From contig JBHORC010000024.1 in the NCBI GenBank assembly GCA_042408445.1, positions 44,092 to 108,091 on the forward strand: a stretch of DNA of 64,000 nt, read 5' to 3'. The position numbers and the translations under genes are program-made. Under the pieces are notes generated by a model. The model searched no databases. It was not told the origin of the DNA and worked only from the letters and a program-made list of their open reading frames with translations. Below, piece by piece: positions 30,258-45,863 of the stretch. The DNA is from Chloroflexota bacterium (GTDB taxonomy: Bacteria > Chloroflexota > Limnocylindria > Limnocylindrales > CSP1-4). Numbering within the stretch: position 1 is the stretch's first letter; the number at the start of each line of letters is the position of its first letter.

Positions 30258-31304
30258 ATGGCCGTCGTGTCTCCACGCCCGCTTCCAGACCGCCCGACGG
30301 TCATCGTCCTGCGGGCGCTTCCCGGTCTGGGCGATTGGCTGTGTGCCGTCCCGACGCTCCGCGCGATCAAGGCGGCACGGCCGAATGCCCGGATTCACCT
30401 CGTCGCCCTCGCCTCAACCCGACCGCTGATCGGGCGGTTCACGGGGCTCGTCGATGGGTTCCACGTGTTCCCGGGCTGGCCGGGTCTGCCGGAGCAGCGC
30501 GTCGATGCCGCCGCGATCCCCGGGTTCCTTGCTGCGCTCCAGTCGCTCGACGCCGACCTCGCGATCCAGCTCCACGGGTCGGGCGAGACGACGAACGAGT
30601 TCGTCCAGCTCTTCGGCGCCCGGCATGTCGCGGGCTTCTACCGGGCCGGCGCCCGCTGCCCCGATCCGTCGCGGTTCCTCACGTGGCGCGACGAGGATCC
30701 GGAGGTGCGGCGGGGCCTGCGACTGCTGAGCCTTCTCGGGATCACCGACGGTAACGAGGAGCTGACCTTTCCGCTCGACCCGGCCGGCGCCGTCGACGCG
30801 CGCCTGCTGCTCGCCGAGGTCGGCGTCACGGAGCCATTCGTCGTCGTGCATCCCGGCGGCAGCCGGCCGGCCGCGCGATGGCGCTGGGACGGGTTCGCGC
30901 GGGTGGGGGGCGAGATGGCGGCGCTCGGCCGGCAGGTCGTCGTGACCGGCACCCGCGAGGAGGCGTCGCTGACGAGCGCGGTCGCGGCCGCGATCCCCGG
31001 TGCCGTCGATCTCGGCGGCCGGACCAGCCTCGATTCCCTCGGCTGGATCCTTCGCCAGGCGACGCTCGTGGTCGCCAACGACACCGGCGTCGCGCATCTC
31101 GCGGACGCCCTCGACGTCCCGAGCGTCGTCGTGTTCGCCGCGGACGACGGCAGCCGGGCCGCGCGCTGGGCGCCGCTCGACACGCGCCTCCACCAGGCTG
31201 TCGGTGGGTCGCCGGGAGCCGTCTCCGCACGTGCGCGGCGGCTGCTCCGACAGATCGAGCGAGGCGCGGGCAGCCGGACGCGACATCCCGGAGTGATGGC
31301 GTGA
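30258..31304 (+). CDS. GT9-family glycosyltransferase (ADP-heptose-dependent heptosyltransferase-like)
   Basis: N-terminal VIVLRALPGLGDWLCAVP and C-terminal NDTGVAHLADALDVPSVVVF motifs typical of WaaC/WaaF-like GT9. Confidence 0.8.
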   Translation: MAVVSPRPLPDRPTVIVLRALPGLGDWLCAVPTLRAIKAARPNARIHLVALASTRPLIGRFTGLVDGFHVFPGWPGLPEQRVDAAAIPGFLAALQSLDADLAIQLHGSGETTNEFVQLFGARHVAGFYRAGARCPDPSRFLTWRDEDPEVRRGLRLLSLLGITDGNEELTFPLDPAGAVDARLLLAEVGVTEPFVVVHPGGSRPAARWRWDGFARVGGEMAALGRQVVVTGTREEASLTSAVAAAIPGAVDLGGRTSLDSLGWILRQATLVVANDTGVAHLADALDVPSVVVFAADDGSRAARWAPLDTRLHQAVGGSPGAVSARARRLLRQIERGAGSRTRHPGVMA

Positions 31305-32368
31305 CGCCGTTCAAGGTGCTCACCTGGCATGTCCACGGGAGCTACCTGGACTCGCTCGCCCGGACCGGCCATGAGTTCTACATCCCGGTGTCCGATCCGC
31401 CGCGGGCGGGGTACGCGCCGCGCTGGCCGGAATGGGGCCCGAACGTGATCGAAGTCCCCGAGGCGGCGGTCCGGGATCTCGACGTCGACGTCGTGCTGTT
31501 CCAGTCGCGGGAGGCGTGGGAGACCGACCAGCACACGATCCTGTCGGCGGAGCAGCGCCGGCTGCCGCGGATGTACCTCGAGCACGATCCGCCGCGCGAG
31601 CACCCGACGGACACCCGCCACTGGGTTGCCGACCCGGACGTCCTCCTCGTCCAGGTCACCCATTTCAACGACCTGATGTGGGACGCCGAACCGACCCCGA
31701 CCCGGGTGATCGAGCACGGCGTCGCGGTGCCGGAGGCCGTCCGGTATGACGGGAGCCTCGAGCGAGGCATCGTCGTCATCAACGACCTCGCGACCCGGGG
31801 TCGCCGTCTCGGCGCGGACCTGTTCGTCGCAGCGCGACGGCAGGTGCCGCTCGATCTCGTCGGGATGAACGCGACGCGACTCGGCGGCCTGGGGGAGGTC
31901 CGCCGCCCGGACCTTGCCGCCTTCGAGGCCCGCTACCGCTTCTTCTTCAACCCGATCCGCTACACGAGCCTGGGACTCGGCCTGCTCGAGGCGATGATGA
32001 TCGGCATGCCGGTCGTCGCCTTCGCGACGACCGAGATCCCGGTCGTCATCGAGGACGGCGTGTCGGGGATCATCGCGACCGATCACGAGGTCCTCCTCGA
32101 CGGGATGCGCGCGCTGATCGCCGATCGCGACCTGGCGCGAGAGCTGGGCGCGGCCGCGCGACGGACGGCCCTCGAGCGGTTCTCGATCCCGCGCTTCGCC
32201 GCGGACTGGACCGCCGCGTTCGAGGACGTCACCGGTCGTCGTGCCGGAACCCGCCCCATCGCCATTGGCTGGTCCACCCCGTCGGACCGCCCGAACCGGC
32301 TGCCCGCGACGTCGCGCGACGGTCGGACGAGCGTGCCCCAGCCCCTGCACGTGGAGACCGCCTCATGA
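31301..32368 (+). CDS. GT4 (GT-B fold) glycosyltransferase
   Basis: GTGA start/stop overlap. C-terminal EAMMIGMPVVAFATTEIPVVIEDGVSG (E-X7-E-type motif). Confidence 0.7.
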   Translation: MTPFKVLTWHVHGSYLDSLARTGHEFYIPVSDPPRAGYAPRWPEWGPNVIEVPEAAVRDLDVDVVLFQSREAWETDQHTILSAEQRRLPRMYLEHDPPREHPTDTRHWVADPDVLLVQVTHFNDLMWDAEPTPTRVIEHGVAVPEAVRYDGSLERGIVVINDLATRGRRLGADLFVAARRQVPLDLVGMNATRLGGLGEVRRPDLAAFEARYRFFFNPIRYTSLGLGLLEAMMIGMPVVAFATTEIPVVIEDGVSGIIATDHEVLLDGMRALIADRDLARELGAAARRTALERFSIPRFAADWTAAFEDVTGRRAGTRPIAIGWSTPSDRPNRLPATSRDGRTSVPQPLHVETAS

Positions 32369-34350
32369 CGCGCCGCATCGCGATGATCTCGGAGCACGCG
32401 TCGCCCCTGGCGACGCTCGGCGGCGTCGATGCCGGCGGGCAGAACGTCTACGTCGCGCAGGTCGCACGCCATCTCGCCGCCGTCGGCGACCGCGTCGATG
32501 TCTTCACGCGGCGCGACGACCCGAACCTCCGCGAGACGGTCGAGCTGGCCCCGGGCGTCCGCGTCGTGCACGTTCCCGCCGGACCGCCGGAGCCAATCTC
32601 GAAGGAACAGCTCCTGCCGTACATGCCGGCGTTCAGCCAGTGGGTCCGCGAGTGGATCGAGCGCCGGCGCGGCTACGACCTGGTCCACGCCAACTTCTTC
32701 TACTCCGGGCTGGTCGCGGCCGAGCTGAAGGCGAGCCTCGGCCTGCCGTTCGTGATCACGTTCCACGCCCTCGGCCGGATCCGGCGGCAGTTCCACGGTG
32801 GCGGCGACGCGTTCCCGGACGAGCGGTTCGCGATCGAGGACCGGATCGTCGCCGAGGCGGACCGGGTCATCGCGGAGTGCCCGCAGGACGAGGAGGACCT
32901 GATCCGCCTCTACAACGCCGAGCCGTCGCGGATCACGATCGTTCCGTGCGGCTTCGACCCGTCCGAGTTCGAGCCGATGAGCCGGCCGCTGGCGCGTCTG
33001 GACCTCGGCCTGGATCCTGCCGAGCCGATCCTCCTCCAGCTCGGCCGGATGGTCCCGCGGAAGGGCGTCGACAACGTCATCCGCGCGGTCTCGCGTCTCG
33101 CGGACGAGCACGACCTCCGTGTCCGGCTCCTGGTCGTCGGCGGGCCGGACCGCGAGCCGGACATCAGCCGGGCACCGGAGCTCGCCCGGCTCACCGAGGT
33201 CGCTCGCAAGGAAGGCGTCGCCGATCGCGTCCAGTTCGTCGGCCGCCGCGACCGCTCGGAGCTGAAGACGTACTACAACGCGGCCGACATCTTCGTCTCG
33301 ACCCCTTGGTACGAGCCGTTCGGCATCACCCCCGTCGAGGCGATGGCCTGCGGCATCCCGGTCGTGGGATCACGCGTCGGCGGGATCAAGTTCAGCGTCC
33401 GCGACGGCGAGACCGGCTACCTCGTCCCCGCCGACGACCCGAGCGCCCTTGCCGAGCGGATCGCCCACCTCTATCGCCACCCGAAGCTCCTCTCCGTGTT
33501 CGGCCGTCAGGCGATCCGCCGGGCGAACGACCTGTTCACCTGGGAGCGGGTCGCGAACGGCCTCGCCGCGGTGTACGAGGACGTGCTCCTCGAGGGCCGG
33601 CTCGCCCGTCGGGATGAGGCCGAGCGACTGGCGAAGGTCGATCGCCGCTTCGAGGAGGCCATCGAGGCGCTCGTCCAGACGCGGCGCCGGTCGCGGGCCG
33701 CGATCGTCGAGGCGGCCGACGAGATCTGCCGGGCGCTCGCGCGGGACGGCAAGCTGCTGATCGCCGGGAACGGCGGGAGCGCGGCCGCTGCATCCCACTG
33801 GGCAGCCGAGTTCGTCGGGCGGTTCCTCGACCACGGTCGCCCCGGGCTCGCGGCGATCTGTCTCGGGACGGATCCATCGGTCGTCACCGCCTGGTCGAAC
33901 GACGTCGGCTTCGACGACGTCTTCGCCCGCCACGTCGAGGCGCTCGGCCGGCCGGGCGACGTGATGATCGGCCTGTCGACGAGCGGGCGGTCGCCGAACC
34001 TCGTCCGCGCGTTCGAGAAGGCCCATGCCCTGGGCCTTCGGACGATCGCGCTGCTCGGCGGCGACGGCGGCGACCTGCGAGCCCACGCGGACCAGGTCGT
34101 CCTCGTGCCGTCGAAGAACACGCAGCACATCCAGGAAGCGCACGACGTGATCGTTCACGTGCTGTGCGAGCTGGTGGAGCAGCGGCTCGTCGCCGCGGGC
34201 TGGTTCAAGCGGCAGACGGGCGGGACGAAGGCCGGGACCGCTGATCCCGGCGCCGAGGACGTGCAGACGCCGCGGCCGACCAGCCACCGAACCAGCACCT
34301 CCCGCGGACCGCGGCCGCGAACCCGCACCCGACAAGGAGTGATTTCGTGA
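32365..34350 (+). CDS. gmhA: Fusion protein: MshA-like GT4 glycosyltransferase (N-terminal) + sedoheptulose-7-phosphate isomerase GmhA (C-terminal SIS domain)
   Basis: N-terminal RIAMISEHASPLATLGGVDAGGQNVYV (MshA-type). C-terminal LLIAGNGGSAAAASHWAAEFVGRF...DVMIGLSTSGRSPNLV...IQEAHDVIVHVLCELVE (GmhA SIS signature). Confidence 0.85.
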   Translation: MTRRIAMISEHASPLATLGGVDAGGQNVYVAQVARHLAAVGDRVDVFTRRDDPNLRETVELAPGVRVVHVPAGPPEPISKEQLLPYMPAFSQWVREWIERRRGYDLVHANFFYSGLVAAELKASLGLPFVITFHALGRIRRQFHGGGDAFPDERFAIEDRIVAEADRVIAECPQDEEDLIRLYNAEPSRITIVPCGFDPSEFEPMSRPLARLDLGLDPAEPILLQLGRMVPRKGVDNVIRAVSRLADEHDLRVRLLVVGGPDREPDISRAPELARLTEVARKEGVADRVQFVGRRDRSELKTYYNAADIFVSTPWYEPFGITPVEAMACGIPVVGSRVGGIKFSVRDGETGYLVPADDPSALAERIAHLYRHPKLLSVFGRQAIRRANDLFTWERVANGLAAVYEDVLLEGRLARRDEAERLAKVDRRFEEAIEALVQTRRRSRAAIVEAADEICRALARDGKLLIAGNGGSAAAASHWAAEFVGRFLDHGRPGLAAICLGTDPSVVTAWSNDVGFDDVFARHVEALGRPGDVMIGLSTSGRSPNLVRAFEKAHALGLRTIALLGGDGGDLRAHADQVVLVPSKNTQHIQEAHDVIVHVLCELVEQRLVAAGWFKRQTGGTKAGTADPGAEDVQTPRPTSHRTSTSRGPRPRTRTRQGVIS

Positions 34351-35198
34351 CCCTGACCGATACCCCTCGTCCCACCCGACGCCCGGCATCGGCCGGCGGC
34401 TCGGCCACGGCCAGCGAGGTCGAGCGCGGGAGCGATGGCGCGACCGCTCGCGACGCGTGGGCCGACGGCCTCGCCGGGCATCTCGTCGGACAGGTGGCGC
34501 TCGTCACGGGTGGCGGCAGCGGTCTCGGCCGGGCGACCTGCGACGTGCTTGGCGCGGCCGGGATGCGCGTCCTGGTCGGCGACATTTCCGCGGCCGGACG
34601 GGAGGAGACGGCGGCATCGATCCTCGGCGCCGGCGGCGACGCGGAGCCGATTGCCCTGGACGTCACCGATCCCGGCTCTGCGACGGCCGGCGTCGCTGCC
34701 GCCGTGGATCGCTGGGGCCGGCTCGACGTCCTCGTGAACAACGCGGGGATCGACCGGACGGCACCGTTCGACGAGCTCGAGGTCGACGACTGGGATCGGA
34801 TCCTCGCGGTGAATCTCCGCGGCCCGGTCGTCATGACGAAGGCGGCCCTCCCCGCGATGCGACAGGCGGGCCGCGGCCACATCGTGAACATCACCTCGAC
34901 CGCGGCCAAGCGGGCGTGGGAGAACGCAAGCGCGTACCACGCCACGAAGTGGGGCCTGCTCGGGCTGAGCCACGCCCTGCACACGGAGGCACGGCGCGAG
35001 GGGATCAAGGTCACGGCTGTTGTCTGTGGCGGGATGCGGACGCCGTTCCTGCTCGATCGCTTTCCGGACCTCGATCCGGGGCTGCTCCAGGACCCGCGAA
35101 CGGTCGCCGAGACGATCCGGTTCGCCCTGTCGCTGCCGGACGAATCCGTGATCCCCGAGATCACGGTGTTGCCGATGCGCGAGACCTCGTGGCCATGA
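34347..35198 (+). CDS. Classical short-chain dehydrogenase/reductase (SDR)
   Basis: TGGGSGLG cofactor motif, NNAG, YHATK catalytic Y-x3-K. Confidence 0.75.
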   Translation: MTLTDTPRPTRRPASAGGSATASEVERGSDGATARDAWADGLAGHLVGQVALVTGGGSGLGRATCDVLGAAGMRVLVGDISAAGREETAASILGAGGDAEPIALDVTDPGSATAGVAAAVDRWGRLDVLVNNAGIDRTAPFDELEVDDWDRILAVNLRGPVVMTKAALPAMRQAGRGHIVNITSTAAKRAWENASAYHATKWGLLGLSHALHTEARREGIKVTAVVCGGMRTPFLLDRFPDLDPGLLQDPRTVAETIRFALSLPDESVIPEITVLPMRETSWP

Positions 35199-35875
35199 CC
35201 CGACTCGCGCAGCGGGGGAGTCGCCCCGCGGCCCCGGCCTCATCGTCCCCCCGGACCGTGCTGTTCGTGGACAAGGACGGGACGCTCATCGAGGACCTCC
35301 CGTACAACGTCGACCCGCGTCGCGTGCGGTTCGCGCCCGGCGCGCGGGAAGCCGTTCGCCTGCTCGGCGCGGCGGGGGTCGAGCTGGCCGTCGTCACGAA
35401 CCAGTCGGGCGTCGCGCGCGGCTACTTCTCGACGGCGGACCTCCGCCGGCTCGGGGAGCACCTGGCGGAGGAGATCGAGGCCCTCGGCGGGCGGCTTGCC
35501 GGCTTCTACGCGTGCCCCCACCTGCCCGACGGATCCGTGCGGGCGTTCTCGACGAGCTGCGACTGTCGCAAGCCACGGCCCGGCTTGCTCCTCCGCGCGT
35601 TCGCCGAGCTCGGCGTCGACCCGGGCCGTTCGTGGTTCGTCGGCGACACGTGGATGGACGTCGCCGCCGGGCACGCCGCCGGGTGCCGGAGCATCCTCGT
35701 GGGCCCGGAGTGGCGCGACCGATCCACCCATCCGGCCGGCATCGAGCCCGACGCCGCCGTGCCGGATCTCCTCGCGGCCGCCCGGATCGTGCTCGCGGAC
35801 CACGCTCGGGGATCCGAGGCAGCTGGTCGGCCGGTCGAGAAGCGACCCCCCGTGGGACGGGCGGTGTCGGCATGA
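35195..35875 (+). CDS. gmhB: D-glycero-D-manno-heptose 1,7-bisphosphate phosphatase
   Basis: VLFVDKDGTLI (HAD motif I), VVTNQSG, CDCRKP zinc motif, FVGDTWMD. Confidence 0.85.
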   Translation: MTRLAQRGSRPAAPASSSPRTVLFVDKDGTLIEDLPYNVDPRRVRFAPGAREAVRLLGAAGVELAVVTNQSGVARGYFSTADLRRLGEHLAEEIEALGGRLAGFYACPHLPDGSVRAFSTSCDCRKPRPGLLLRAFAELGVDPGRSWFVGDTWMDVAAGHAAGCRSILVGPEWRDRSTHPAGIEPDAAVPDLLAAARIVLADHARGSEAAGRPVEKRPPVGRAVSA

Positions 35876-37356
35876 CGACGGGCCTGCTCGCTGCCGTCGA
35901 CGCGATGCAGGGTCGGCGGATCCTCGTCATCGGCGAAGCGATGCTCGACAGCTACCTCCGCGGCCATGCCGACCGGCTCAGCCGTGAGGCGCCGGTCCCC
36001 GTCGTTGCGATGGACCGCCGCGTGGATTCCGCCGGCGGAGCGGCGAACAGCGCGGCGAATCTCGCCGCGCTGGGCGCCAACGTGACGCTGCTGTCCGTGG
36101 TCGGCCTGGACGAGGAGGGCGAGCGGCTGTGCTCGGCGCTGGTACAAGCCGGCCTCGACACGACCGGCGTGCTGCGCGACCCGCAGCGACGAACCCTGAC
36201 GAAGCAGCGCGTCGTCGCCGACGGCCAGGTGCTGCTCCGCTTCGACAGCGGCACGGTCGATGGCATCTCGGCGACGCTCGAGGACGAGCTGATCGACCGG
36301 ATCGAGGCGCTTGTTCCGGAGATGGATGCCGTGCTGGTCTCGGACTACGCGTACGGCGTCGTCGGCCCGCGGATCGACACCGCGCTCGCCGAGTCGTTCG
36401 CGCGGCGGCGGCCCGTCGTCGTCGTCGATGCCCGCGACCCGTCGCGCCACGCCCGCCTCGCGCCGACCGCCACGAAGCCGAACTACGGCGAGGCGGTCCG
36501 GCTGCTCGGCGAGCAGGAGCTCGAGGGATCCGAGGCTCGCGCCCGCCAGATCGTCGCGGGCGCCGAGACGCTCCATCGCCGGACCGGCTCCGCCGTCGTC
36601 GCGGTGACCCTCGATCGGGAAGGCGCGGTCATCCTCGAGCAGGGACGCCAGCCGTACCGGACATACGCGCGTCCCACGGCGGATCAGCAGGCATGCGGCG
36701 CCGGCGACACGTACAGCGGCGTTCTCGCCCTCGGGCTCGCCGCGGGCGCGCCGACCCCGGTCGCGGCGGAGCTCGCAGCGGCGGCCGCCGGCGTCGTCGT
36801 CCAGAAGGACGGGACGGCGATCTGCACCGCGGCCGACCTCGCGGCAGCCGTCGGCCGATCCGAGAAGCGACTGGAGTCGCTCGACGAGGTCCGGGCACGA
36901 GTGGCGCTCCTTCGCGAGCAGGGCCGCCGGATCGTCTTCACCAACGGCTGCTTCGACATCCTCCACCGCGGTCATGTCACCTATCTGTCACGGGCCAAGG
37001 CGCTCGGCGATGTGCTGCTCGTCGGCGTGAACTCCGACGCGAGCGTCCGCGGGCTGAAGGGCGCCGACCGGCCGATCAACCGCCTCGAGGACCGTCTCAG
37101 CGTTCTCGAGGCGCTCTCCTGCATCGATCACGTCATCCCGTTCGAGGCGGCAACGCCGGCCGCCCTGATCGCCGCGATCCGGCCGGACGTCTTCGTGAAG
37201 GGCGGCGACTATCGCCGCGAGACGTTGCCCGAGGCGCCACTCGTCGAGCGCCTCGGCGGGACGGTCCGGATCCTGTCGTACGTCCAGGACTACTCGACCA
37301 CGAGCCTCATCCACCGTGTCCGGGCGGTCGACCAGACCGAGGCGTTGCGGCAATGA
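35872..37356 (+). CDS. hldE: Bifunctional D-beta-D-heptose 7-phosphate kinase / D-beta-D-heptose 1-phosphate adenylyltransferase
   Basis: PfkB kinase N-domain (ILVIGEAMLDSYL...EAPVPVV, GAGDTY). Cytidylyltransferase-fold C-domain (TNGCFDILHRGHVTYL...VGVNSDASVRGLKG). Confidence 0.9.
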   Translation: MTTGLLAAVDAMQGRRILVIGEAMLDSYLRGHADRLSREAPVPVVAMDRRVDSAGGAANSAANLAALGANVTLLSVVGLDEEGERLCSALVQAGLDTTGVLRDPQRRTLTKQRVVADGQVLLRFDSGTVDGISATLEDELIDRIEALVPEMDAVLVSDYAYGVVGPRIDTALAESFARRRPVVVVDARDPSRHARLAPTATKPNYGEAVRLLGEQELEGSEARARQIVAGAETLHRRTGSAVVAVTLDREGAVILEQGRQPYRTYARPTADQQACGAGDTYSGVLALGLAAGAPTPVAAELAAAAAGVVVQKDGTAICTAADLAAAVGRSEKRLESLDEVRARVALLREQGRRIVFTNGCFDILHRGHVTYLSRAKALGDVLLVGVNSDASVRGLKGADRPINRLEDRLSVLEALSCIDHVIPFEAATPAALIAAIRPDVFVKGGDYRRETLPEAPLVERLGGTVRILSYVQDYSTTSLIHRVRAVDQTEALRQ

Positions 37357-38519
37357 CCGGCGCAGGACTCACCGGCGACTGGGCCGCGGCGCGGAGGATC
37401 CTCGTCGTCCGGCTCGACGCCCTCGGCGACGTGCTGATGACGACGCCCGCGTTCCGCGCCCTCGCCAGTAGCCACCCCGACGTCCGCCTCACGCTGCTCA
37501 CGTCGCGCGCCGGCGCGACCGTCGCCCCGATGCTCCCCGAGATCGGATCCGTGATCGTCCATGACGTCCCGTGGATGAAGACCGAGCCGCCCGACGGCTC
37601 GGGCAGCGGTGGTCGCGCCGACCGCGACCTCATCGATCGCCTCCGCGCGGAGCGCTTCGACGCCGCCGTGATCTTCACCGTCCACAGCCAGAGCGCATTG
37701 CCCGCAGCGCTGCTGTGCCACCTGGCCGACATCCCGCGGCGGCTTGCCCATGCCCGCGAGAATCCCTACCGGCTCCTGACGGACTGGGTCGCCGACCCGG
37801 AGCCGGATGGCCCGACCCGCCACGAGGTCCGGCGTCAGCTCGATCTGGTCGCGACGGTCGGCGCGGCGATCGACGACGACCACCTCTCGGTCCGGGTCCC
37901 ACCGGCAGCCGCCCGAGCCGTTCGGGCCCGTCTCGATGCTCTCGGCGTCCGCCTCGATCGGCCGTGGGCCGTTCTCGCGCCGGGGGCGAGCGCCTCGTCG
38001 CGGCGCTATCCGCCGGCCTCGTACCGGGCCGTCGCCGCGACCCTTGCCCGGGATCATGGCTGGCAGATCGTCGTGACCGGCGGACGGGACGAGGCGGGGC
38101 TCGTGTCGGAGGTCACTGCGGGCCTCGGCCGTCGCGTGATCCCGCTCGCGGGGCAGCTCGATGTCCCGGAGCTCGCGGCGCTTCTCGCGATGACGCCCGT
38201 CCTGATCGGCAACAACTCGGGACCGGCTCACCTCGCGGCGGCCGTGGGGACGCCCGTCGTCGACGTGTACGCGCTCACGAACCTCCAGCACGCGCCGTGG
38301 GGCGTCGTCTCGCGCGTCCTGGCGACGGACGTCCCGTGCAAGGGCTGCCGGAAGAGCGTCTGCCCGATCGGCGACCAGGCCTGCATCCGCGGGGTGGATC
38401 CCGCGGCCGTCGTCTCGGCCGCCATCGAGCTCGTGGCGCCGCACCCCGCCGCCGCGCGGATGCCGGCCGGGATCCTCGTGCCTGACCCGCGGTACGCCCG
38501 ATCGGCCGGTCCCGGGTGA
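37353..38519 (+). CDS. GT9-family heptosyltransferase-like glycosyltransferase (second copy)
   Basis: ILVVRLDALGDVLMTTPAFRAL, NNSGPAHLAAAVGTPVVDVY, Cys-rich CKGCRKSVCP insert typical of WaaF-like enzymes. Confidence 0.8.
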   Translation: MTGAGLTGDWAAARRILVVRLDALGDVLMTTPAFRALASSHPDVRLTLLTSRAGATVAPMLPEIGSVIVHDVPWMKTEPPDGSGSGGRADRDLIDRLRAERFDAAVIFTVHSQSALPAALLCHLADIPRRLAHARENPYRLLTDWVADPEPDGPTRHEVRRQLDLVATVGAAIDDDHLSVRVPPAAARAVRARLDALGVRLDRPWAVLAPGASASSRRYPPASYRAVAATLARDHGWQIVVTGGRDEAGLVSEVTAGLGRRVIPLAGQLDVPELAALLAMTPVLIGNNSGPAHLAAAVGTPVVDVYALTNLQHAPWGVVSRVLATDVPCKGCRKSVCPIGDQACIRGVDPAAVVSAAIELVAPHPAAARMPAGILVPDPRYARSAGPG

Positions 38520-38523
38520 TGCG

Positions 38524-39336
38524 GTGACCGACGACCAGCTGGACCAGGTCGACGTCCTGATCCCGACCTACCGCCGGCCGACCGCCCTCGCGGTGACCCT
38601 CGCGGGTCTCGCCGCCCAGACGCGGTCGTCGCTCCGGATCGTCGTCTCCAGCCAGACCCCGGAGACCGAACCGGTCCTCGGGCCGGAGGCCGAGGCCGTG
38701 GTTCGCGTCCTGCGGGCACAGGGTCGACCCGTCGAGGTCGGCCGGCACCTGCCACGGCGGGGCATGGCGGAGCATCGGCAGTCCCTGCTCGATCGCGCGC
38801 GAGCGCCGTACGCGCTGTTCCTCGACGACGACGTCCTCATCGAGCCGGATCTGGTCGACCGCCTCGTGCGCGCGATCGGCCGGGCGGGCTGCGGCTTCGT
38901 CGGCTCGGCCGTCGTCGGCTTGAGCTACGAATCGGACGTCCGGCCGCACGAGCAGCAGGTCGAGTTCTGGGATGGCCCGGTGACGCCCGAGTCGGTCGTC
39001 CCGGGCACGCCCGCCTGGGAGCGTCACCGCCTCCACAACGCCGCGAACCTGCACCACCTCCGGCGCCGGCTGTCCCCGGGCGATCGGCTCTACCGCGTCG
39101 CATGGGTCGGCGGCTGCGTGCTGTTCGACACGGAGAAGCTGCGGGACGCCGGCGGGTTCGGGTTCTGGCGACAGCTCCCGGAGCAGCACGCGGGCGAGGA
39201 CGTCCTCGCCGAGCTGAACGTGCTGCGCACGTACGGGGGCGCCGGCCTGTTCCCGTCCGGTGCCTACCACCTGGAGCTCCCGACGACGATCCCGAACCGG
39301 GAGCACGACGCCCCGTTCCTTCTGCAGCCCGCCTGA
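38524..39336 (+). CDS. GT2-family (GT-A fold) glycosyltransferase
   Basis: VDVLIPTYRRPTAL and DxD motif FLDDDV. GTG start. Confidence 0.7.
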   Translation: MTDDQLDQVDVLIPTYRRPTALAVTLAGLAAQTRSSLRIVVSSQTPETEPVLGPEAEAVVRVLRAQGRPVEVGRHLPRRGMAEHRQSLLDRARAPYALFLDDDVLIEPDLVDRLVRAIGRAGCGFVGSAVVGLSYESDVRPHEQQVEFWDGPVTPESVVPGTPAWERHRLHNAANLHHLRRRLSPGDRLYRVAWVGGCVLFDTEKLRDAGGFGFWRQLPEQHAGEDVLAELNVLRTYGGAGLFPSGAYHLELPTTIPNREHDAPFLLQPA

Positions 39337-39367
39337 CGGACGCCGAGCACGAACCAAGGGAGACACG

Positions 39368-39931
39368 ATGGCGACCGAGACCAAGACGCGACGCGAATCC
39401 AGCACCCGCAGTCGATCCGGCGGGTCCGGAAGCGGCTCGAGGGCCAGCTCCGGCAGCCGCAATCGGCAGAGCGGCAGCGGCGGCAACGGCAGCAGCGGCG
39501 GCGGCGGCCGGGGACGCGACACGAACGCCAACGCCGACGACCGGACGTTCCTCGAGCGGTTTGGCGACCAGCTCTCGCCCTCGACCCGCCGCGCCCGGTG
39601 GATCCATTCGCCGGACGAGCGACCCGAGCGAAAGGGCCAGACGCTGGCGACCCGCTCCCCGGAGGTGGTCCGTGCCTGGGCGGAGGAGCGCGACGGCCGA
39701 CCGGCGACTGCGACGCGTGGCAAGGACGGGCGGCCGCGAACGCTCCGGATCAGCTTCGCGACCGGCGACGACAGCGGCAGCAGGCGGCGGCGGCTCGAGG
39801 AGATCAGCTGGGACGAGTGGCTCGGGGTCTTCACCGAGCGGAACCTCGTCTTCATCTACCAGCAGCAGCGACGGGACGGGCGCCAGAGCAACTTCTTCCG
39901 GCTCGACAGCCCGGACCGGGAGGACGGCTGA
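39368..39931 (+). CDS. Small basic protein with Ser/Gly/Arg-rich disordered N-terminus and conserved-looking C-terminal domain (function unknown)
   Basis: SD AAGGGAGA before ATG. N-terminal 60 aa low complexity (SRSGGSGSGSRASSGSRNRQSGSGGNGSSGGGG). C-terminal RTLRISFATGDD...ISWDEWLGVFTERNLVFIY. Confidence 0.4.
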   Translation: MATETKTRRESSTRSRSGGSGSGSRASSGSRNRQSGSGGNGSSGGGGRGRDTNANADDRTFLERFGDQLSPSTRRARWIHSPDERPERKGQTLATRSPEVVRAWAEERDGRPATATRGKDGRPRTLRISFATGDDSGSRRRRLEEISWDEWLGVFTERNLVFIYQQQRRDGRQSNFFRLDSPDREDG

Positions 39932-40998
39932 TCGCGGTCGCGGGGGGCGGACCACGGATCCCGAACGTCGAGCGGATCGCCGTCCTCCGCGCCAACGCTC
40001 TCGGTGACCTCGTCGTCGCCCTGCCCGCGCTCGAGGCGCTGCGAGCCGCCTACCCGGACGCCGAGATCACGCTCCTCGGCCGGCAGCACCACGTCGCGCT
40101 GCTCGGAAGCCGCGATGGTCCCGTCGATCGGGTGATCCCGCTGCCGGACGGCGCGATCGGCGACGAAGGGCGCGAGGATCCGGACCTGGATCGGGACGCG
40201 CTCCTGGACGATCTCGCCGCGCGCGGCTTCGACCTGGCGATCCAGCTTCACGGCGGCGGCCGCAACTCGAACCGGTTCGTGCGGGGGCTCGGCGCGCGGG
40301 TCACGGCCGGCAGCCGGACGCCGGACGCGCCCCAGCTCGATCGGTGGATCCCGTACGAGCACTACCAGTGGGAGATCGCCCGGTATCTCGAGGTCGTCGG
40401 CCTGGTCGGGGCGGCGCCGGTTGCGATCGAGCCTCGGCTCGACGTCACGGACCATGACCGGGCGGCGCTGGACCGCGAGCTGCCGGGCGTCCGCGGCAGC
40501 CACCCGATCGTGATCCATCCCGGGGCGAGCGATGCCCGGCGGCGCTGGCCGGTCGAGCGGTTCATCGAGGTCGTCACGGAGCTCCGCAGGCTCGGCCGCG
40601 AGGTCGTGGTCACGGGCACCCGCGACGAGGCCCACCTCGTCGAGCCGATCGTCGAATCCGCGACGGAGGGCACGACGGCGGCGCTGACGCTCTCCCTGCC
40701 GGCCCTGCTCGCGCTCGTCGCGAGCGCCGATCTCGTCGTGTCGAACGACACCGGACCGCTCCACCTCGCGATCGCGGCCGGGACGCCGACCGTGGGTCTG
40801 TTCTGGGTCGGCAACCTGATCAACGCCGGGCCGTTCTCGCGCCGCCGCCACCGTCCCTTGCTGTCATGGCGGATGCTCTGCCCGGTCTGTGGAGCGGACG
40901 CGTCCGTCGAGCGCTGCGAGCACAACCCCTCGTTCATCGCGGAGATCCCGGTCCGGTCCGTGATCGATGCGGCCACCGACCTGCTCCGCGTACGATGA
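39928..40998 (+). CDS. GT9-family heptosyltransferase-like glycosyltransferase (third copy), apparently lacking a canonical start codon
   Basis: RIAVLRANALGDLVVALPALEAL, SNDTGPLHLAIAAGTPTVGLF, C-x2-C-x8-C tail. Only in-frame candidate start near the expected N-terminus is CTG at 39928, overlapping the upstream TGA. Confidence 0.7.
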   Translation: MIAVAGGGPRIPNVERIAVLRANALGDLVVALPALEALRAAYPDAEITLLGRQHHVALLGSRDGPVDRVIPLPDGAIGDEGREDPDLDRDALLDDLAARGFDLAIQLHGGGRNSNRFVRGLGARVTAGSRTPDAPQLDRWIPYEHYQWEIARYLEVVGLVGAAPVAIEPRLDVTDHDRAALDRELPGVRGSHPIVIHPGASDARRRWPVERFIEVVTELRRLGREVVVTGTRDEAHLVEPIVESATEGTTAALTLSLPALLALVASADLVVSNDTGPLHLAIAAGTPTVGLFWVGNLINAGPFSRRRHRPLLSWRMLCPVCGADASVERCEHNPSFIAEIPVRSVIDAATDLLRVR

Positions 40999-42929
40999 CC
41001 CCACCGACGCCGAGCCTCCCGAGACGCCGCGCCCCGGACCGCGAGCCCCTGATCGCGGTGATCATGCCGACGTACGCCCAGGCCGCGTTCCTCCCGCGGG
41101 CGGTGTCGAGCCTCCTCGCCCAGACCGAGACACGCTGGCAGCTGTGCATCGTCGACGACGCGTCGCCGGACGAGACCGCGGCCCTCGTGACGCCGTACCT
41201 CGCCGACCCCCGGATCCGCTACATCCGCCGTCCGTCGAACGGTGGCGTCGGCCGCGCGCTCAACGACGGGCTGGACGCGACCCAGGCGCCGCTCGTCGCC
41301 TATCTGCCCTCGGACGACGTCCTGCACGCGGACCATCTGGCGACCCTGCTCGCGACGCTCGGCGACGATCCGGCGGTCGTCATGGCGACGACGGGCGTTC
41401 GCCACCACTACAACCGGGATGCCCTCGACACCGTCGACGGCTGGCCGCAGCTCGTCCAGGTCCTCCATCGGCGCGTTCCCGAGCGCTGGGTCGAGCGCGA
41501 CGAGCTCGTCACCGACGATCTCGACCGGATGTACTGGTCTGCCGTCCGGCGTCACGGCGACGTCCGCCAGACGGGTCGGGTGACGTGCGAGTGGGTCCAT
41601 CACCCCGACCAGCTGACGCACCTGATCCGCGAGCCGCTCGGCGGCATCAATCCGTTCCGCCAGCGGTTCGGCATCAGCCATCCGCTCCGGTTCGAGACGA
41701 CCGTCGGCGATCCGATCGACGAGGTCGCCCGATACCGGCGGTTCCGCGACCGCCCGCCGACGCCGATGGCACCGGACGGGCTCCGGATCCTGCTGGTCGG
41801 CGAGCTCTCCTACAACCCGGAGCGGATCCTCGCGCTCGAGGAACGAGGCCACCGGCTGTTCGGGCTCTGGACGCCGGATCCCGCCTGGTACACGGCCGTC
41901 GGCCCGGTCCCGTTCGGTCACGTCCAGGACGTCCCGAGCCACGACTGGGAGACCGCGGTCCGCGAGCTCCGGCCGGACGTGATCTACGCGCTCCTGAACT
42001 GGCACGCCGTGCCGTTCGCCGCCGAGGTCCGCCGGCGCCTCGCCGACATCCCGTTCGTCTGGCACTTCAAGGAAGGTCCATTCATCTGCCGCGAGCGCGG
42101 GACGTGGAGCGACCTCGTCGAGCTGACGGACCGGTCGGCCGGCGTCATCCACTCGAGCCGCGAGATGGCCGACTGGTTCGCGACGTTCCTGCCCGACGCG
42201 AACGATCCGCGCCGCAGCCTGGTGCTCGACGGCGACCTGCCGAAGGCCGAGTGGTTCGAGGGGATCCGGCCGTCGCCGCGACTCTCGGCGGCCGACGGGG
42301 AGATCCACACCGTCGTCCCGGGCCGCCCGATCGGGCTGCATCCCGAGGACGTCGCCGCGCTCGCGGGGGAGGGGATCCATCTCCACTTCCACGGCCAGTT
42401 CACCCACGGCCAGTGGCGCGAGTGGATCGAGCGGAGTCGCAGGCTCGCGCCACGTCACCTCCATCTCCACCCCACCGCGGGCCAGGAGGAGTGGGTCGCG
42501 GTCTTCTCCCAGTACGACGCCGGCTGGCTGCACGTCTTCGAGTCGACGAACGGCGGCGACCTGGCTGCGGCGAGCTGGGACGACCTGAATCTCCCCGCCC
42601 GGATGGCGACGCTCGCGGCGGCCGGCCTGCCGATGATCCAGCGGCGCAACGACGGCTCGACCGTGGCCATCCAGACCGTCGCGCGGGAGCTGGGGATCGG
42701 CGTGTTCTTCGAGCGGCCGGACGAGCTCGCGGCGACCCTCCGCGACGAGGTGGAGATGCGGCGCGCGCGGGCCAACGTCACCCGCCACCAGGCGGAGTTC
42801 ACGTTCGATCACCACGCCAACCGGTTGATCGAGTTCTTCCGGCGGGTGGTCGACCGGCCCGCGTCGTCCTCCGAGCTGTCCCTGGGCGCGATCGCATCGC
42901 CCGCGGCGGGCGCGACCGCCGCGTTCTGA
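40994..42929 (+). CDS. Dual-domain glycosyltransferase: N-terminal GT2 (GT-A) plus C-terminal GT-B-like Rossmann domains
   Basis: N-terminal LIAVIMPTYAQAAFL...CIVDDASPDE...LPSDD (GT2). C-terminal approx. 400 aa with Rossmann-like ILLVGELSYNPE and second-lobe pattern. Confidence 0.6.
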
Positions 42930-42980
42930 GCGGCGGCTGTGCGCGGACTTCTGGTCGCCATTGCCCGATATCGTTCGCGG

Positions 42981-43625
42981 ATGACGGCTGACGACGCAGC
43001 ACGCGCCACCCGCACCGCCGGCGTCGTCCTCGCCGCGGGCGCGGGCTCCCGGTTCGGTGGCGGGAAGCTGCTGGCGGAGCTCGACGGCGAGCCGATCCTC
43101 CGGCACGTCGTCTCCGCAGCGGTCGCCGCCGGCCTCGACCCGATCGTCGTCGTCGAGCCGCCCGACGGCAGCGTGGGCGATCTGGATCTCGGGCCCGTTC
43201 GACGGATCGTCAATCCCCACCCCGAGGAGGGCCTCTCGAGCTCCGTTCGGCTCGGCCTCCGTGGGCTCCTCGACGACGAGGACGTGGAACAGGCCGTGAT
43301 CCTGCCTGGCGACCAGCCGCGGGTTCGGCCCTCGACGATCCGCGCGCTGGTCGACGCATCGGACGAATCGCCGCGGACGCCGTTCGTCGTCGCCCGCCAC
43401 GACGCGGACCGGACGCCCAACCCGGTGCTCGCGCGCCGTTCGATCTGGCGACTCGCCGACGAGATCGCGGGCGATCGCGGCTTCGGGCCCGTGCTCGGTG
43501 CGCACCCGGAGCTCGTCCGCGAGGTCCGGATCGAGGGCGCGAACCCGGACGTCGACACGGCCGAGGACCTGCGCCGGCTGTCGGGGCCGATCGAACCCGC
43601 CGCCGGCGGGCGCGACGTATCGTGA
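42981..43625 (+). CDS. MobA-like nucleotidyltransferase (candidate molybdenum cofactor cytidylyltransferase MocA, or a sugar-phosphate nucleotidyltransferase)
   Basis: GVVLAAGAGSRFGGGK P-loop-like motif of the MobA/MocA/IspD NTP_transf_3 family. Confidence 0.55.
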   Translation: MTADDAARATRTAGVVLAAGAGSRFGGGKLLAELDGEPILRHVVSAAVAAGLDPIVVVEPPDGSVGDLDLGPVRRIVNPHPEEGLSSSVRLGLRGLLDDEDVEQAVILPGDQPRVRPSTIRALVDASDESPRTPFVVARHDADRTPNPVLARRSIWRLADEIAGDRGFGPVLGAHPELVREVRIEGANPDVDTAEDLRRLSGPIEPAAGGRDVS

Positions 43626-43630
43626 GGCGA

Positions 43631-44478
43631 TGACCACCGCCAGCGCCGCTCAGCTCGAGGCTGCCTGGGCCGAACGCGTTCGGGCCAATCGCGAGCAGGT
43701 CGACCGCGTTCGGGAGCTGCCGGACCGCGACTTCTACGCTCCCGTCTCGTCGCTGTTCATCGCCGACGCCCACCGCCGGGGCGAGGAAGCGCTCGACGCG
43801 CTCCTGGCGATCACCGAGTCGGGCGATCGGTGGCTCGACATCGGCGCAGGCGCCGGCCGCTATGCACTGCCGCTCGCGCTGCGCGTGGCCGAGGTGATCG
43901 CGGTCGAGCCGTCGGCCTCGATGCGCAATGCCCTGCGAACCGGCAAGGCCGAGCACGGGCTCGCCAATCTGCGGATCGTGCCGGCCGCATGGCCGGCGGC
44001 GCTGGAGCAGCTGGGGACGCCGCCGGTCGCCGATGTCGCGTTCGTCGCCCACGTCGGGTACGACATCGAGGAGATCGGGCCGTTCCTCGACGCGATGGAG
44101 CAGGCGGCATCACGCCTCTGCGTCGCGATGCTGACGGACCGCAGTCCGGCGTCGGTCGCGGACCCGTTCTGGCCACTGGTCCACGAGATGGAGCGCGTCC
44201 CGCTGCCGGCGCTCCCGGAGCTCGCGGAGCTGCTCCGCGCGCGCGGCCGCCGGACGGAGATCCAGCGCGTCGAGCGGGCGCCGCGGACGTTCGACTCCTT
44301 CGACGGGCTCGCGACCTTCATCCGCCGCCAGCTGTGGATCCGCGACGACGGCGAGAAGGAGCAGCGGTTCCGGATCGCGCTCGCGGCGATGGCCCGCGAA
44401 CGCGACGACGACGGCTGGACGCTCGCGACGCCGCCGGTCGGCGCGATCGGCATCCTGACCTGGGAACCGCTCGGCTGA
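43631..44478 (+). CDS. Class I SAM-dependent methyltransferase
   Basis: Motif I WLDIGAGAGRYALPLA, followed by acidic residue motif VIAVEPS. Confidence 0.65.
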
Positions 44479-44493: not shown

Positions 44494-44994
44494 GTGTCCA
44501 TCGCCGATGCCGTCGCCGGCGCGACCGTCTACCTGACCGACCATCCCGATGAGGCCCGCTACCGCGACTCGGTCGCGACGGCGCGGATCACCTCGGGGCT
44601 TCGCGCCGAGGTCCGGGGTCCGGGCGGCGAAACCGTCGCGGCCGACATGCCGACCGGCATCGGTGGCACCGCCTCCGCCCCGTCGCCAGGCTGGCTGATG
44701 CGAGCCGCGGCCGCCTCGTGCGTCGCTGCGCTCATCGCCATTCGGGCTGCGGCCACGGGCGTGGCGCATGGTGCGATCGAGGTCGCGGTGGACAGCGAGT
44801 CCGACGACCGCGGCATTCTCGGCCTGGACGAGGCGATCGACGCCGGCGCGCTGTCGATGGCGGTCGTCGTCTCCGTCGACGGGGTCGCGGATCACGAGGC
44901 TCGATCCCTCGTCGACTGGGCGGTCGCGCATTGCCCGGTCACGGACACGATCGCGAGGGCGGTCCCGATCGCCGCCGAGGTTCGCGCAGCGTAG
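44494..44994 (+). CDS. OsmC/Ohr-family protein
   Basis: approx. 165 aa with OsmC-like pattern including conserved Cys pair (ASCVAAL...AHCPV). SD GAGGAGGAG before GTG. Confidence 0.7.
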   Translation: MSIADAVAGATVYLTDHPDEARYRDSVATARITSGLRAEVRGPGGETVAADMPTGIGGTASAPSPGWLMRAAAASCVAALIAIRAAATGVAHGAIEVAVDSESDDRGILGLDEAIDAGALSMAVVVSVDGVADHEARSLVDWAVAHCPVTDTIARAVPIAAEVRAA

Positions 44995-45038
44995 GTTCGC
45001 CAGTCGGCTCGGCTCGGGGCTGGCCCGTGTTTCGGGCC

Positions 45039-45068
45039 TTGACATGTGACTCGACGGTCACATAACAT
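45039..45068 (+). promoter_or_regulatory. Putative promoter with operator palindrome: TTGACA, TGTGAC-tcgacg-GTCACA, TAACAT
   Basis: -35 TTGACA and -10-like TAACAT separated by 18 nt containing a perfect 6-6-6 inverted repeat. ATG of the ArsR-AHSA1 gene 7 nt downstream (near-leaderless). Confidence 0.5.
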
Positions 45069-45074
45069 CGCGAC

Positions 45075-45863
45075 GTGGACGAGATGGCGGCGGTCTTCCG
45101 GGCGCTGGGCGATCCCAGCCGGCGGCTGCTCCTCGATCGGCTGTTCGATCGCGACGGACAGACGCTCGGCGAGCTGGCGGCGCATCTGCCCGGCATGACG
45201 CGCTTCGGCGTGATGCGCCATCTCGATGTCCTCGAGGAAGCCGGCCTGATCGAGACGCGTCGGGTCGGCCGCGAGAAGCACCACTTCCTGAACCCCGTCC
45301 CGATCCGGCTCGTCGCCGATCGCTGGATCGGCAAGTTCGCCGAGCCGGTGGTCGGGCGGATGGCCGCGATCAAGCACGACCTGGAGGCACCCTCGATGCT
45401 CGCACCGGACCATGTCTACTCGGTGATCATCCGCGCGACGCCCGACCGGATCTGGCGGGCGATCACGGACGGGGTCGAAACCGAGCGCTACTACTACGGC
45501 ACGCGGGTCGACTCGGACTGGTCGCCGGGCGGCCGCGTCATCTACACGTATCCGGATGGTTCGGTCGCGGCCGACGGCGAGGTCGTCGACATCGAGCCAG
45601 GCCGCTCCGTGACGATGACCTTCCACGCCCGGTGGAGCCCGGAGATCGAAGCCGAGGGTCCCGTCCGGATGACGTGGGCGGTCGAGCCTGCTGGCCCGGG
45701 TGTCTCGAAGCTCACGGTCGTGACGTCCGGGATGCGCGAAGGCGGCGTCGTCCAGACGGAGTTCGGCGGCGGAATCGTCTTCATCGTCTCGGGGCTGAAG
45801 ACGTACGTCGAGACGGGGGAGGCGATGGCGGCCGAGCCGGACGCGGTGGCCACGGGAAGCTGA
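45075..45863 (+). CDS. ArsR-family HTH fused to SRPBCC/AHSA1 (activator of Hsp90 ATPase-like) domain regulator
   Basis: N-terminal FRALGDPSRRLLLDRL...LAAHLPGMTRFGVMRHLDVLEEAGLI. C-terminal AHSA1-like approx. 150 aa. Confidence 0.75.
   Translation: MDEMAAVFRALGDPSRRLLLDRLFDRDGQTLGELAAHLPGMTRFGVMRHLDVLEEAGLIETRRVGREKHHFLNPVPIRLVADRWIGKFAEPVVGRMAAIKHDLEAPSMLAPDHVYSVIIRATPDRIWRAITDGVETERYYYGTRVDSDWSPGGRVIYTYPDGSVAADGEVVDIEPGRSVTMTFHARWSPEIEAEGPVRMTWAVEPAGPGVSKLTVVTSGMREGGVVQTEFGGGIVFIVSGLKTYVETGEAMAAEPDAVATGS

Follow-up and report, generated by a model that had tools for sequence, protein, structure and literature searches.

In a 64,000-nucleotide (nt) stretch of DNA from a Chloroflexota bacterium (contig JBHORC010000024.1, positions 44,092 to 108,091; this whole stretch is called the window below), the gene of a heptosyltransferase-like family 9 glycosyltransferase (GT9), which we will refer to as GT9-C, has no canonical start codon between the stop of the small open reading frame (ORF) ahead of it and its own first conserved strand. 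Judging from the sequence, we consider it probable (roughly 0.6) that GT9-C is translated by coupled initiation at this stop/start junction, on a CUG codon or, in the window genome, on the AUC at 39931. Non-canonical CUG initiation or tight translational coupling had been put forward, among several explanations, in a preliminary description of this DNA; this reading has become the best supported because of a census of the junction in related loci, purifying selection upstream of the first canonical start, and the co-occurrence of a full Shine-Dalgarno sequence with the start-less state. Near-cognate initiation and stop/start coupling are both known phenomena, and GT9-C would be a variant of both. 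If the reading is true, it describes a natural, evolutionarily persistent case of near-cognate initiation inside the stop/start overlap of a bacterial enzyme gene.

The GT9-C Gene and Its Missing Start Codon

The elements at and around the junction are the following (positions in the window):

39817..39819, + strand: rival start GTG, in frame with GT9 and lying within the small ORF, 111 nt ahead of the CTG; a by-product of Glu-Trp codons (GA[AG] TGG)
39918..39924, + strand: Shine-Dalgarno sequence GGGAGGA in the Arg-Glu-Asp codons near the end of the small ORF, 4 nt from the CTG and 7 nt from the ATC
39928..39931, + strand: CTGA stop/start overlap; TGA (39929-39931) is the stop of the small ORF and CTG (39928-39930) the first in-frame near-cognate codon
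39928..40998, + strand: GT9-C, 356 codons counted from the CTG
39931..39933, + strand: ATC, near-cognate alternative directly after the CTG, with the best Shine-Dalgarno spacing
39934..39936, + strand: GCG codon where most orthologues have a GTG start (TGAnnGTG), from the junction alignment
39973..40008, + strand: first Rossmann beta strand (beta-1) and Gly-Asp loop (RIAVLRANALGD), upstream of GTG 40132 and nearly invariant in alignment A2
40132..40134, + strand: first canonical in-frame start past the junction (GTG, codon 69 from the CTG), used by public gene calls
40879..40923, + strand: Cys-x2-Cys...Cys-x-His motif (C318, C321, C330, H332) in the C-terminal part of GT9-C

The GT9 identity of the product is firm. 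It scores 88.7 bits against PF01075 (cutoff 22) and matches PDB entry 3TOV with E = 5.5e-17; its alignments begin at residue 15/16, opposite residue 9 in 3TOV and residue 2 in WaaC. G26 and D27, in the Gly-Asp loop, are nearly invariant among orthologues. Against the WaaC/WaaF/WaaQ equivalog models of NCBIfam, its scores of 72, 71, 66 and 58 bits stay far below the respective cutoffs of 170, 185, 467 and 135. The cysteine motif, which follows the PF01075 region and is probably a metal-binding knuckle, is nearly invariant in GT9-C orthologues (including those of Microbispora, Planotetraspora, Sphaerimonospora and Micromonosporaceae), absent in the paralogue GT9-A and variant in the paralogue GT9-B. 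At the far end of the gene, its TGA overlaps the ATG of the next one (ATGA, 40995-40998).

As the preliminary description had reported, the TGA of the small ORF overlaps an in-frame CTG (39928) that precedes RIAVLRANALGD (39973) by 15 codons. Its statement that no ATG, GTG or TTG lies in frame nearby holds between the TGA at 39929-39931 and beta-1 at 39973, where the GT9 frame contains none, but fails upstream, where GTG 39817 is found 111 nt before the CTG; the canonical codons of this frame are GTG 39598 and GTG 39817, both within the small ORF, and then GTG 40132. Two other statements need correction. The CTG had been placed at the same offset from beta-1 as the starts of the paralogues, which in fact lie 13 codons (GT9-A, ATG 30258) and 14 codons (GT9-B, ATG 37353) ahead of it, similar to 15 but not identical, and both of which are ATG. 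It had also been taken as the only plausible start, whereas ATC 39931-39933 is near-cognate as well and is 7 nt rather than 4 nt from GGGAGGA; further in-frame ATC codons occur at 39958 and 39976.

Public gene calls on the window contig give only a truncated 288-aa product of GT9-C, from GTG 40132, and the same product is called in the Logan assembly of the same organism. Gene finders would shorten GT9-C in this way because its likely start is a CUG (or AUC) overlapping the upstream stop.

The Junction in Related Loci

Related loci, 182 in all, were fetched, and the junction was examined wherever a GT9 gene lies directly downstream of the small ORF on the same strand. About 17 distinct junction types occur in the close clade. 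In most orthologues a GTG stands 2-3 nt past the TGA (TGAccGTG, TGAcgcGTG, TGAgggGTG), i.e., at +5/+6. The start-less junction is found in six distinct loci from different samples (the window, L164, L179/L180, L165, L177 and L002), L164 being the closest relative of the window, with 89-90% protein identity, from another JGI sample. This recurrence in five other distinct loci, from other samples, marks the junction as more than chance. At the position of the former GTG, the start-less loci carry GCG (window, L164, L002, L165, L177) or GCC (L179); on the simplest account, an ancestral GTG start would have been lost through a single T-to-C change, and 39934..39936 would be the site of that loss.

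The upstream ORF ends with cgg gag gac g[gc]C TGA in six of six start-less loci, which yields GGGAGGA and then an in-frame CTG, and this CTG is the sole near-cognate codon common to them all; ATC follows it in three of the six (window, L164 and L179/L180). From CTG to beta-1 the lengths are 15, 15, 15, about 24, 25 and 29 codons, and the two stay in frame in all start-less loci despite these indels, as is expected of the spacer if translation starts near the junction. A neighbour-joining tree places all start-less loci in one clade, together with three GTG-bearing loci (GTG at +5, +8 and +20), which means that the start was lost either several times or once, with regains. Between the lineages that show the start-less state, protein sequences differ by 30%. 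In two loci, L181 (1111-1270) and L182, the small gene is absent, and a GTG lies 3 nt past the stop of the 270-aa GT2 gene (TGAgacGTG).

In annotation, GT9-C and several of its orthologues lose 15-70 residues or give way to a spurious ORF on the opposite strand. The latter was called at the start-less junction of L164 (1034-2017, - strand), and wrong calls at two more start-less junctions, L002 (6657) and L177 (698), have starts inside DLVVALP and beta-1. The caller also picked an internal GTG inside beta-1 in L181, despite the GTG after the GT2 stop. If the stronger proposal below (CUGA as a dedicated signal for reinitiation) is right, genes like this one would be systematically truncated or missed in annotation pipelines.

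Purifying Selection on GT9-C

Codon comparisons show GT9-C as a functional heptosyltransferase-family gene kept by purifying selection along its whole length. Between the window and L164 (304 codons), non-synonymous divergence (dN) is 0.069 and synonymous divergence (dS) 0.47, a ratio (omega) of 0.145, and the same region read in the wrong frames gives 2.9 and 3.9. For codons 16-68, omega in this pair is 0.11 (17.5 synonymous and 6.5 non-synonymous changes), and it is 0.08-0.17 over the first 53 codons from beta-1 in pairs that include a start-less locus, with 0.09-0.17 for the start-less pairs. The neighbouring small ORF and 270-aa GT2 gene reach 0.16 and 0.064 between the window and L164. 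Counted from beta-1, the GT9 is 341-347 codons long where the contig reaches the stop (window, L179, L002 and L177); the contigs of L164 and L165 end before it. Such low values upstream of GTG 40132 in start-less genomes imply translation from a point at or before beta-1, and this in turn would rule out a sequencing error, a pseudogene or a truncated product.

Shine-Dalgarno Sequence and RNA Structure at the Junction

The distribution of GGGAGGA was counted among members of the small-protein family with at least 65% GC. Of the scored start-less loci, 5 of 5 have it; where a canonical start follows the stop, 3 of 16 loci do, and among family members without a downstream GT9, 18 of 94. Fisher tests of the start-less loci against the latter two groups give p = 0.003 and p = 0.0005, respectively, uncorrected for phylogeny.

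The same segment takes part in a predicted RNA structure:

39919..39988, + strand: predicted hairpin between GGAGGACGGCuGAUC (39919-39933, covering the Shine-Dalgarno sequence, CTG and ATC) and GAUCGCCGUCCUCC (39975-39988; beta-1 codons)

The fold of 39870-39990 has a minimum free energy of -68.1 kcal/mol (z = -3.2). Resampling of synonymous codons indicates that the peptides REDG-stop and RIAVLR alone yield about -16 kcal/mol, with p about 0.03 for the hairpin of the window and 0.03-0.68 for other loci, most of which are unexceptional. That the hairpin was selected to hide the Shine-Dalgarno sequence and the start is not claimed here; if present, the predicted hairpin would favour coupling. 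Scans of the region of this junction for Rfam families, promoters and terminators gave no match.

A Natural Deletion of the Upstream Gene

An in-frame internal deletion has shortened the small ORF of L179 (1316-1417) and L180 (581-682) to 33 codons, encoding MATATTTGSHRDRMGAAAEDRRFRLDSPEREDA followed by the stop. This mini-ORF keeps the ribosome-binding site, the ATG, the last 10 codons, GGGAGGA and the CTGATC junction, so that a translatable ORF ending on the CTGA junction is still retained. The GT9 behind it is intact, with 361 codons and 78% identity to that of the window, and the nearest in-frame canonical start in L179 is 381 nt upstream, within the GT2 gene. Omega between L179 and the window is 0.265 for GT9, beside 0.184 for the neighbouring GT2 as a control; the relaxation is thus not specific to GT9. 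Taken together, the deletion in L179/L180 and the absence of the small gene from L181/L182 imply that the body of the small protein is dispensable for GT9-C.

The Small Protein and Its Family

The small ORF and its parts are:

39358..39363, + strand: Shine-Dalgarno sequence of the small ORF (GGGAGA), 4-5 nt ahead of its ATG
39368..39931, + strand: gene of a small basic protein (187 aa, isoelectric point (pI) 11.3) of a large uncharacterised family
39368..39532, + strand: disordered Ser/Gly/Arg-rich N-terminal tail (residues 1-55, pI 12.0), from predicted local distance difference test (pLDDT) values and composition
39533..39928, + strand: folded alpha/beta core (residues 56-187), ending with the family-wide motif SNFFRLD.P.REDG

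Several features of this ORF were described correctly from the outset, including its extent (39368..39931, 187 aa), its good Shine-Dalgarno sequence (GGGAG at 39358-39362, with a 5-nt spacer), and its Ser/Gly-rich disordered N-terminus and structured C-terminus. Among residues 1-60 are 14 Ser, 14 Gly and 10 Arg; in the AlphaFold model, pLDDT is about 50 over residues 1-50 and exceeds 90 at 116 residues of the core. Third-position GC marks the frame of the small ORF as coding from about 39460 to 39931 and the GT9 frame from 39930-39970 on. The gene is conserved and real rather than spurious, with 298 homologues and a dN/dS of 0.16 against L164. Among homologues (alignment A1) the tail is between 0 and about 70 residues long, and its sequence is not conserved.

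The family comprises 2,272 cluster representatives at E <= 1e-3 (clusters at 50% identity), or 975 at 1e-10, from Chloroflexota, Burkholderiales, Nitrospira, Nannocystis, Microbacteriaceae, Micromonospora, Gemmatimonadota and Acidobacteriota. The protein has zero matches to Pfam, NCBIfam or PADLOC models, a search for a solved structural relative of its core found none, and the PHROGs search gave a single weak match, on the low-complexity tail. An internal repeat was considered and is unsupported (mean z = 0.7). A sample of 150 diverse representatives shows fusions to Rho_N (11), hemerythrin (5), DUF892 (2), the histone-H1-like HC2 (2), SAP (2), a LacI-type helix-turn-helix (1) and a lamin-tail (1), and six family members show weak matches to a Prim-Pol N-terminal model over the core itself. 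Relatives P0246, P0252, P0302, P0305, P0327, P0334 and P0339 are examples of such fusions. From these sequences, the fusions point to an association with nucleic acids or stress, not to a sugar acceptor.

Only two kinds of gene recur beside the family, orthologues of the 270-aa GT2 (at 31 of 170 loci) and GT9-C orthologues (at 29 of 170), in co-directional or convergent order or 1-3 kb apart, in Chloroflexota, in Casimicrobiaceae/Burkholderiales metagenome-assembled genomes (MAGs) and in one Micromonospora genome. Where at least 1.5 kb is available on both sides, 14 of 68 loci have a GT2 or GT9 within three genes, and about 80% do not. In the homologue search, which had been suggested earlier for conservation of the pairing, the neighbourhood link to GT2/GT9 recurs, but most family members are found elsewhere. 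Given these neighbourhoods, a functional link of the family to GT2/GT9 is plausible, and a large family without a Pfam model or solved relative that recurs beside this gene pair is of interest in itself. In seven Casimicrobiaceae/Burkholderiales loci (L021, L022, L024, L140, L145, L146, L161) the small gene adjoins a GT2 and a GT9-C orthologue (48-50% identity), accompanied by a second, convergent GT9 and, upstream, by a carbamoyltransferase-like protein (assigned by eye) and a 381-aa protein. Proteobacteria therefore have another version of the module, in a different arrangement.

Proposed Initiation at the Junction and Its Alternatives

We propose that translation of GT9-C would start at the stop/start junction on a near-cognate codon. 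CUG 39928, within CUGA, would be the only candidate common to all start-less relatives, and AUC 39931 a second candidate, restricted to the window genome and its two nearest relatives. Ribosomes finishing the upstream ORF would stop at a UGA lying right on the initiation site, and GGGAGGA (39918-39924) could retain them there after termination. The outcome would be termination-reinitiation, or a tightly coupled fresh initiation, with the NTGA geometry also seen at six other junctions of the cluster. Termination-reinitiation driven by very short overlaps has been described (PMC10666635), and there is precedent for CUG and AUC as near-cognate starts in Escherichia coli (Hecht et al., bioRxiv 10.1101/063800). 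On this proposal, the role of the upstream gene for GT9-C would mainly be to deliver ribosomes to the junction. The initiation codon of GT9-C, its dependence on upstream translation and its expression level are what we infer from these arrangements.

A stronger version, which we advance tentatively and with the odds rather against it, is that a clade of Limnocylindrales-like Chloroflexota uses CUGA as a signal dedicated to reinitiation, GT9-C being made only by ribosomes that have just terminated upstream and restart on CUG. An enzyme made only in this way would allow its upstream gene to decay to a 33-codon leader, as in L179, while being kept itself. If initiation at the junction is right, the unusually clear series from an ancestral GTG, through a start-less clade with a strengthened Shine-Dalgarno sequence, to a natural deletion by which the upstream gene became a leader ORF could be used as a test of how far termination-reinitiation loosens the choice of start codon outside Escherichia coli.

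Several points weigh against initiation on a near-cognate codon at the junction. The translation and the N-terminus of GT9-C are deduced from sequence alone. A CUG 4 nt after GGAGG has a short Shine-Dalgarno spacing. The start-less loci are related, perhaps representing three independent lineages, and the Fisher tests therefore overstate significance. CTGA also ends 55% of the family members without a downstream GT9, being common because GGC and TGA are preferred codons, and since GGGAGGA and CTGA encode the conserved C-terminus Arg-Glu-Asp-Gly-stop, their presence is partly due to coding. The deletion in L179 could be too recent for decay to be visible. Near-cognate codons are weak in E. coli, where CUG, AUC, AUU and AUA starts reach 1-2% of AUG (Hecht et al., bioRxiv 10.1101/063800). 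Lastly, four of the six start-less loci have a canonical [AG]TG in frame 111 nt upstream, and synonymous divergence between the window and L164 is low over the stretch that begins at GTG 39817 (2/24.5 against 29/75.8 sites, p = 0.005).

These last two points belong to an alternative that we consider unlikely, namely that GT9-C starts at the canonical GTG 39817 (ATG in L164 and L002). It would then carry 52 additional N-terminal residues and share the final 37 codons of the small ORF, read in the -1 frame. An in-frame [AG]TG is present at -111 in the window, L164, L002 and L165 (GTG in L165), L177 has a GTG at -120, and this reading is stop-free up to the junction in all five; moreover, the drop in synonymous divergence between the window and L164 (0.08 against 0.38 in the rest of the small ORF, by the same Fisher test) covers exactly the last 37 codons of the small ORF. 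Nevertheless, the codon is forced by a conserved Glu-Trp (GA[AG] TGG) and is found no less in loci whose own GTG follows the stop; in-frame stops separate its site from the junction in L003 (-9) and L086 (-24); and in L179/L180 the site is deleted, yet the GT9 is intact and conserved. The sequence GAGGAG is 15 nt upstream, so that no Shine-Dalgarno sequence stands at working distance, and third-position GC around 39817 follows the frame of the small ORF only. The dS drop is not significant in the other start-less pairs, and what other pairs show is a mild drop common to start-less and canonical loci. Within 39818..39972, synonymous divergence from L164 is about five-fold down over those 37 codons compared with flanking coding sequence, and the first 15 codons of GT9-C are low as well; an overlapping frame, a constraint at the RNA level or local recombination could be the cause.

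Initiation at the junction has also to be weighed against four further readings. That the gene was recently inactivated, being untranslated or giving only the truncated product from GTG 40132, would agree with the 288-aa product of automated callers and with the frequency of long open frames at 72% GC. It is very unlikely in view of the dN/dS of 0.145 between two start-less genomes (0.11 for the 53 codons ahead of GTG 40132), the wrong-frame omega above 2.8, and the full length still found, where the contig reaches the stop, in lineages 30% apart; besides, a product from codon 69 would lose beta-1 together with the Gly-Asp loop. Fusion of the small ORF with GT9-C by programmed frameshifting had been suggested initially; through a -1 shift, or through readthrough, it would fit two frames that abut at the TGA beside a Shine-Dalgarno-like sequence with a downstream pairing partner. 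We regard it as highly improbable: orthologues differ in frame offset (0 or 2), and most of them have their own GTG, no X XXY YYZ slippery heptamer can be seen by eye in CCG GAC CGG GAG GAC GGC TGA, no Rfam element was found at the junction, L181 has its GT9 directly after the GT2 stop without the small gene, and neither 120 listed homologues nor 150 family representatives include a fusion of the small protein with GT9. A sequencing or assembly error masking a true GTG at 39934-39936, likewise proposed at the start, would need a single T-to-C change to account for the lost start; it is hardly credible, as the independent Logan assembly of run SRR24490439 (L001) is identical at the junction, the diverged L164 (a different JGI sample, dS 0.47) shows the same start-less state with GCG, as do L002, L165 and L177, and L179 has GCC. 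The earlier suggestion of an O-glycosylation acceptor or carrier returns in the reading that the small protein is an acceptor, carrier or obligate partner of the GT2/GT9 enzymes, with coupling setting their stoichiometry. The recurrence of the family beside both orthologues (31/170 and 29/170) in varied arrangements favours such a role, as does the tight overlap of the genes, since tightly overlapped pairs often encode partners of a complex (PMC10666635). It is nonetheless quite unlikely: of the 68 loci that extend 1.5 kb or more on each side, only 14 have either enzyme within three genes, the Ser/Gly tail that would form the acceptor region is not conserved (0 to about 70 residues), GT9-C persists where the protein body is deleted (L179) or the gene is absent (L181), the fusions (Rho_N, SAP, HC2, LacI-type, hemerythrin, DUF892) include zero sugar-related domains, and TibC, a protein heptosyltransferase of solved structure, has no sequence similarity to GT9-C at E up to 10. 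Presumably, the small protein is not a glycosylation substrate.

Comparison With Known Systems

The junction resembles the 4-nt ATGA/GTGA termination-reinitiation pairs (e.g., trpB-trpA; PMC10666635) in that the genes are co-directional, a Shine-Dalgarno sequence lies in the last codons of the gene upstream, and the overlap (CTGA, 39928-39931) has the NTGA geometry; it differs from them in its non-canonical overlapping triplet, CTG, and in that coupling is here deduced from the arrangement. The classic bacterial near-cognate start is the AUU of infC. With near-cognate starts GT9-C shares a selected N-terminus with no canonical codon ahead of it (save for GTG 39817), in a gene under selection, and a near-cognate codon kept after a Shine-Dalgarno sequence in relatives (GGGAGGA and then CTG in 6/6). 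Unlike in infC, the codon is embedded in a stop/start overlap, an ancestral GTG was lost in one clade and not family-wide, and regulatory logic of the infC type is not known for GT9-C. A literature search for N-terminomics reports of conserved CTG or ATC starts gave nothing of use. Of the marks of programmed -1 frameshift fusions, neither a slippery heptamer (sought by eye) nor a conserved frame relation is found.

As an enzyme, GT9-C is like WaaC/WaaF (PDB 2GT1, 1PSW) and 3TOV in its PF01075 domain, its GT-B N-terminus starting at beta-1 and its Gly-Asp loop, and unlike WaaC/WaaF in its extra CxxC...CxH motif. Its operon, with HldE-like, GmhB-like (HAD) and SIS (GmhA-like) proteins, recalls lipopolysaccharide (LPS) heptosyltransferase systems; Limnocylindrales (Chloroflexota), its closest named relatives, are not known to have classical LPS. 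The TibC/AAH autotransporter heptosyltransferases are cytoplasmic, modify Ser residues of proteins and have a Cys-bound metal site. Compared with solved structures at E up to 10, GT9-C matches five GT9 chains only (3TOV, WaaF and three WaaC) and no TibC/AAH; it is unlike the latter in having no sequence similarity to their solved members and no autotransporter substrate present.

The Surrounding Gene Cluster

The window has a GC content of about 72%. Among named organisms, Candidatus Limnocylindrales and other Chloroflexota MAGs are closest to it. From GT9-A (30258) through the OsmC region, the genes of the glycosylation cluster are all co-directional and form one cluster:

30258..31304, + strand: GT9-A
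ending at 32368, + strand: GT4 glycosyltransferase
32365..34350, + strand: GT4-SIS fusion (SIS, GmhA-like)
34347..35198, + strand: short-chain dehydrogenase
35195..35875, + strand: HAD phosphatase (GmhB-like)
35872..37356, + strand: PfkB plus cytidylyltransferase (HldE-like)
37353..38519, + strand: GT9-B
38524..39336, + strand: 270-aa GT2
39368..39931, + strand: small ORF
39928..40998, + strand: GT9-C
40995..42929, + strand: 644-aa GT2
downstream of the 644-aa GT2: nucleotidyltransferase, methyltransferase and OsmC

Four-base ATGA or GTGA overlaps occur at six other junctions of this cluster, where every stop is TGA (30258..44478), a layout that gives the entire cluster the look of a translational chain.

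Parts of an ADP-heptose pathway, namely a GmhA-like SIS protein, a HAD phosphatase and an HldE-like kinase/nucleotidyltransferase, lie at 32365..37356 and adjoin three GT9, two GT2 and two GT4 genes. The cluster is flanked upstream by an XdhC-family protein (28987..30111) and downstream by OsmC and an HTH_20/AHSA1 regulator (44494..45863), and these flanking genes appear unrelated to the start-codon finding.

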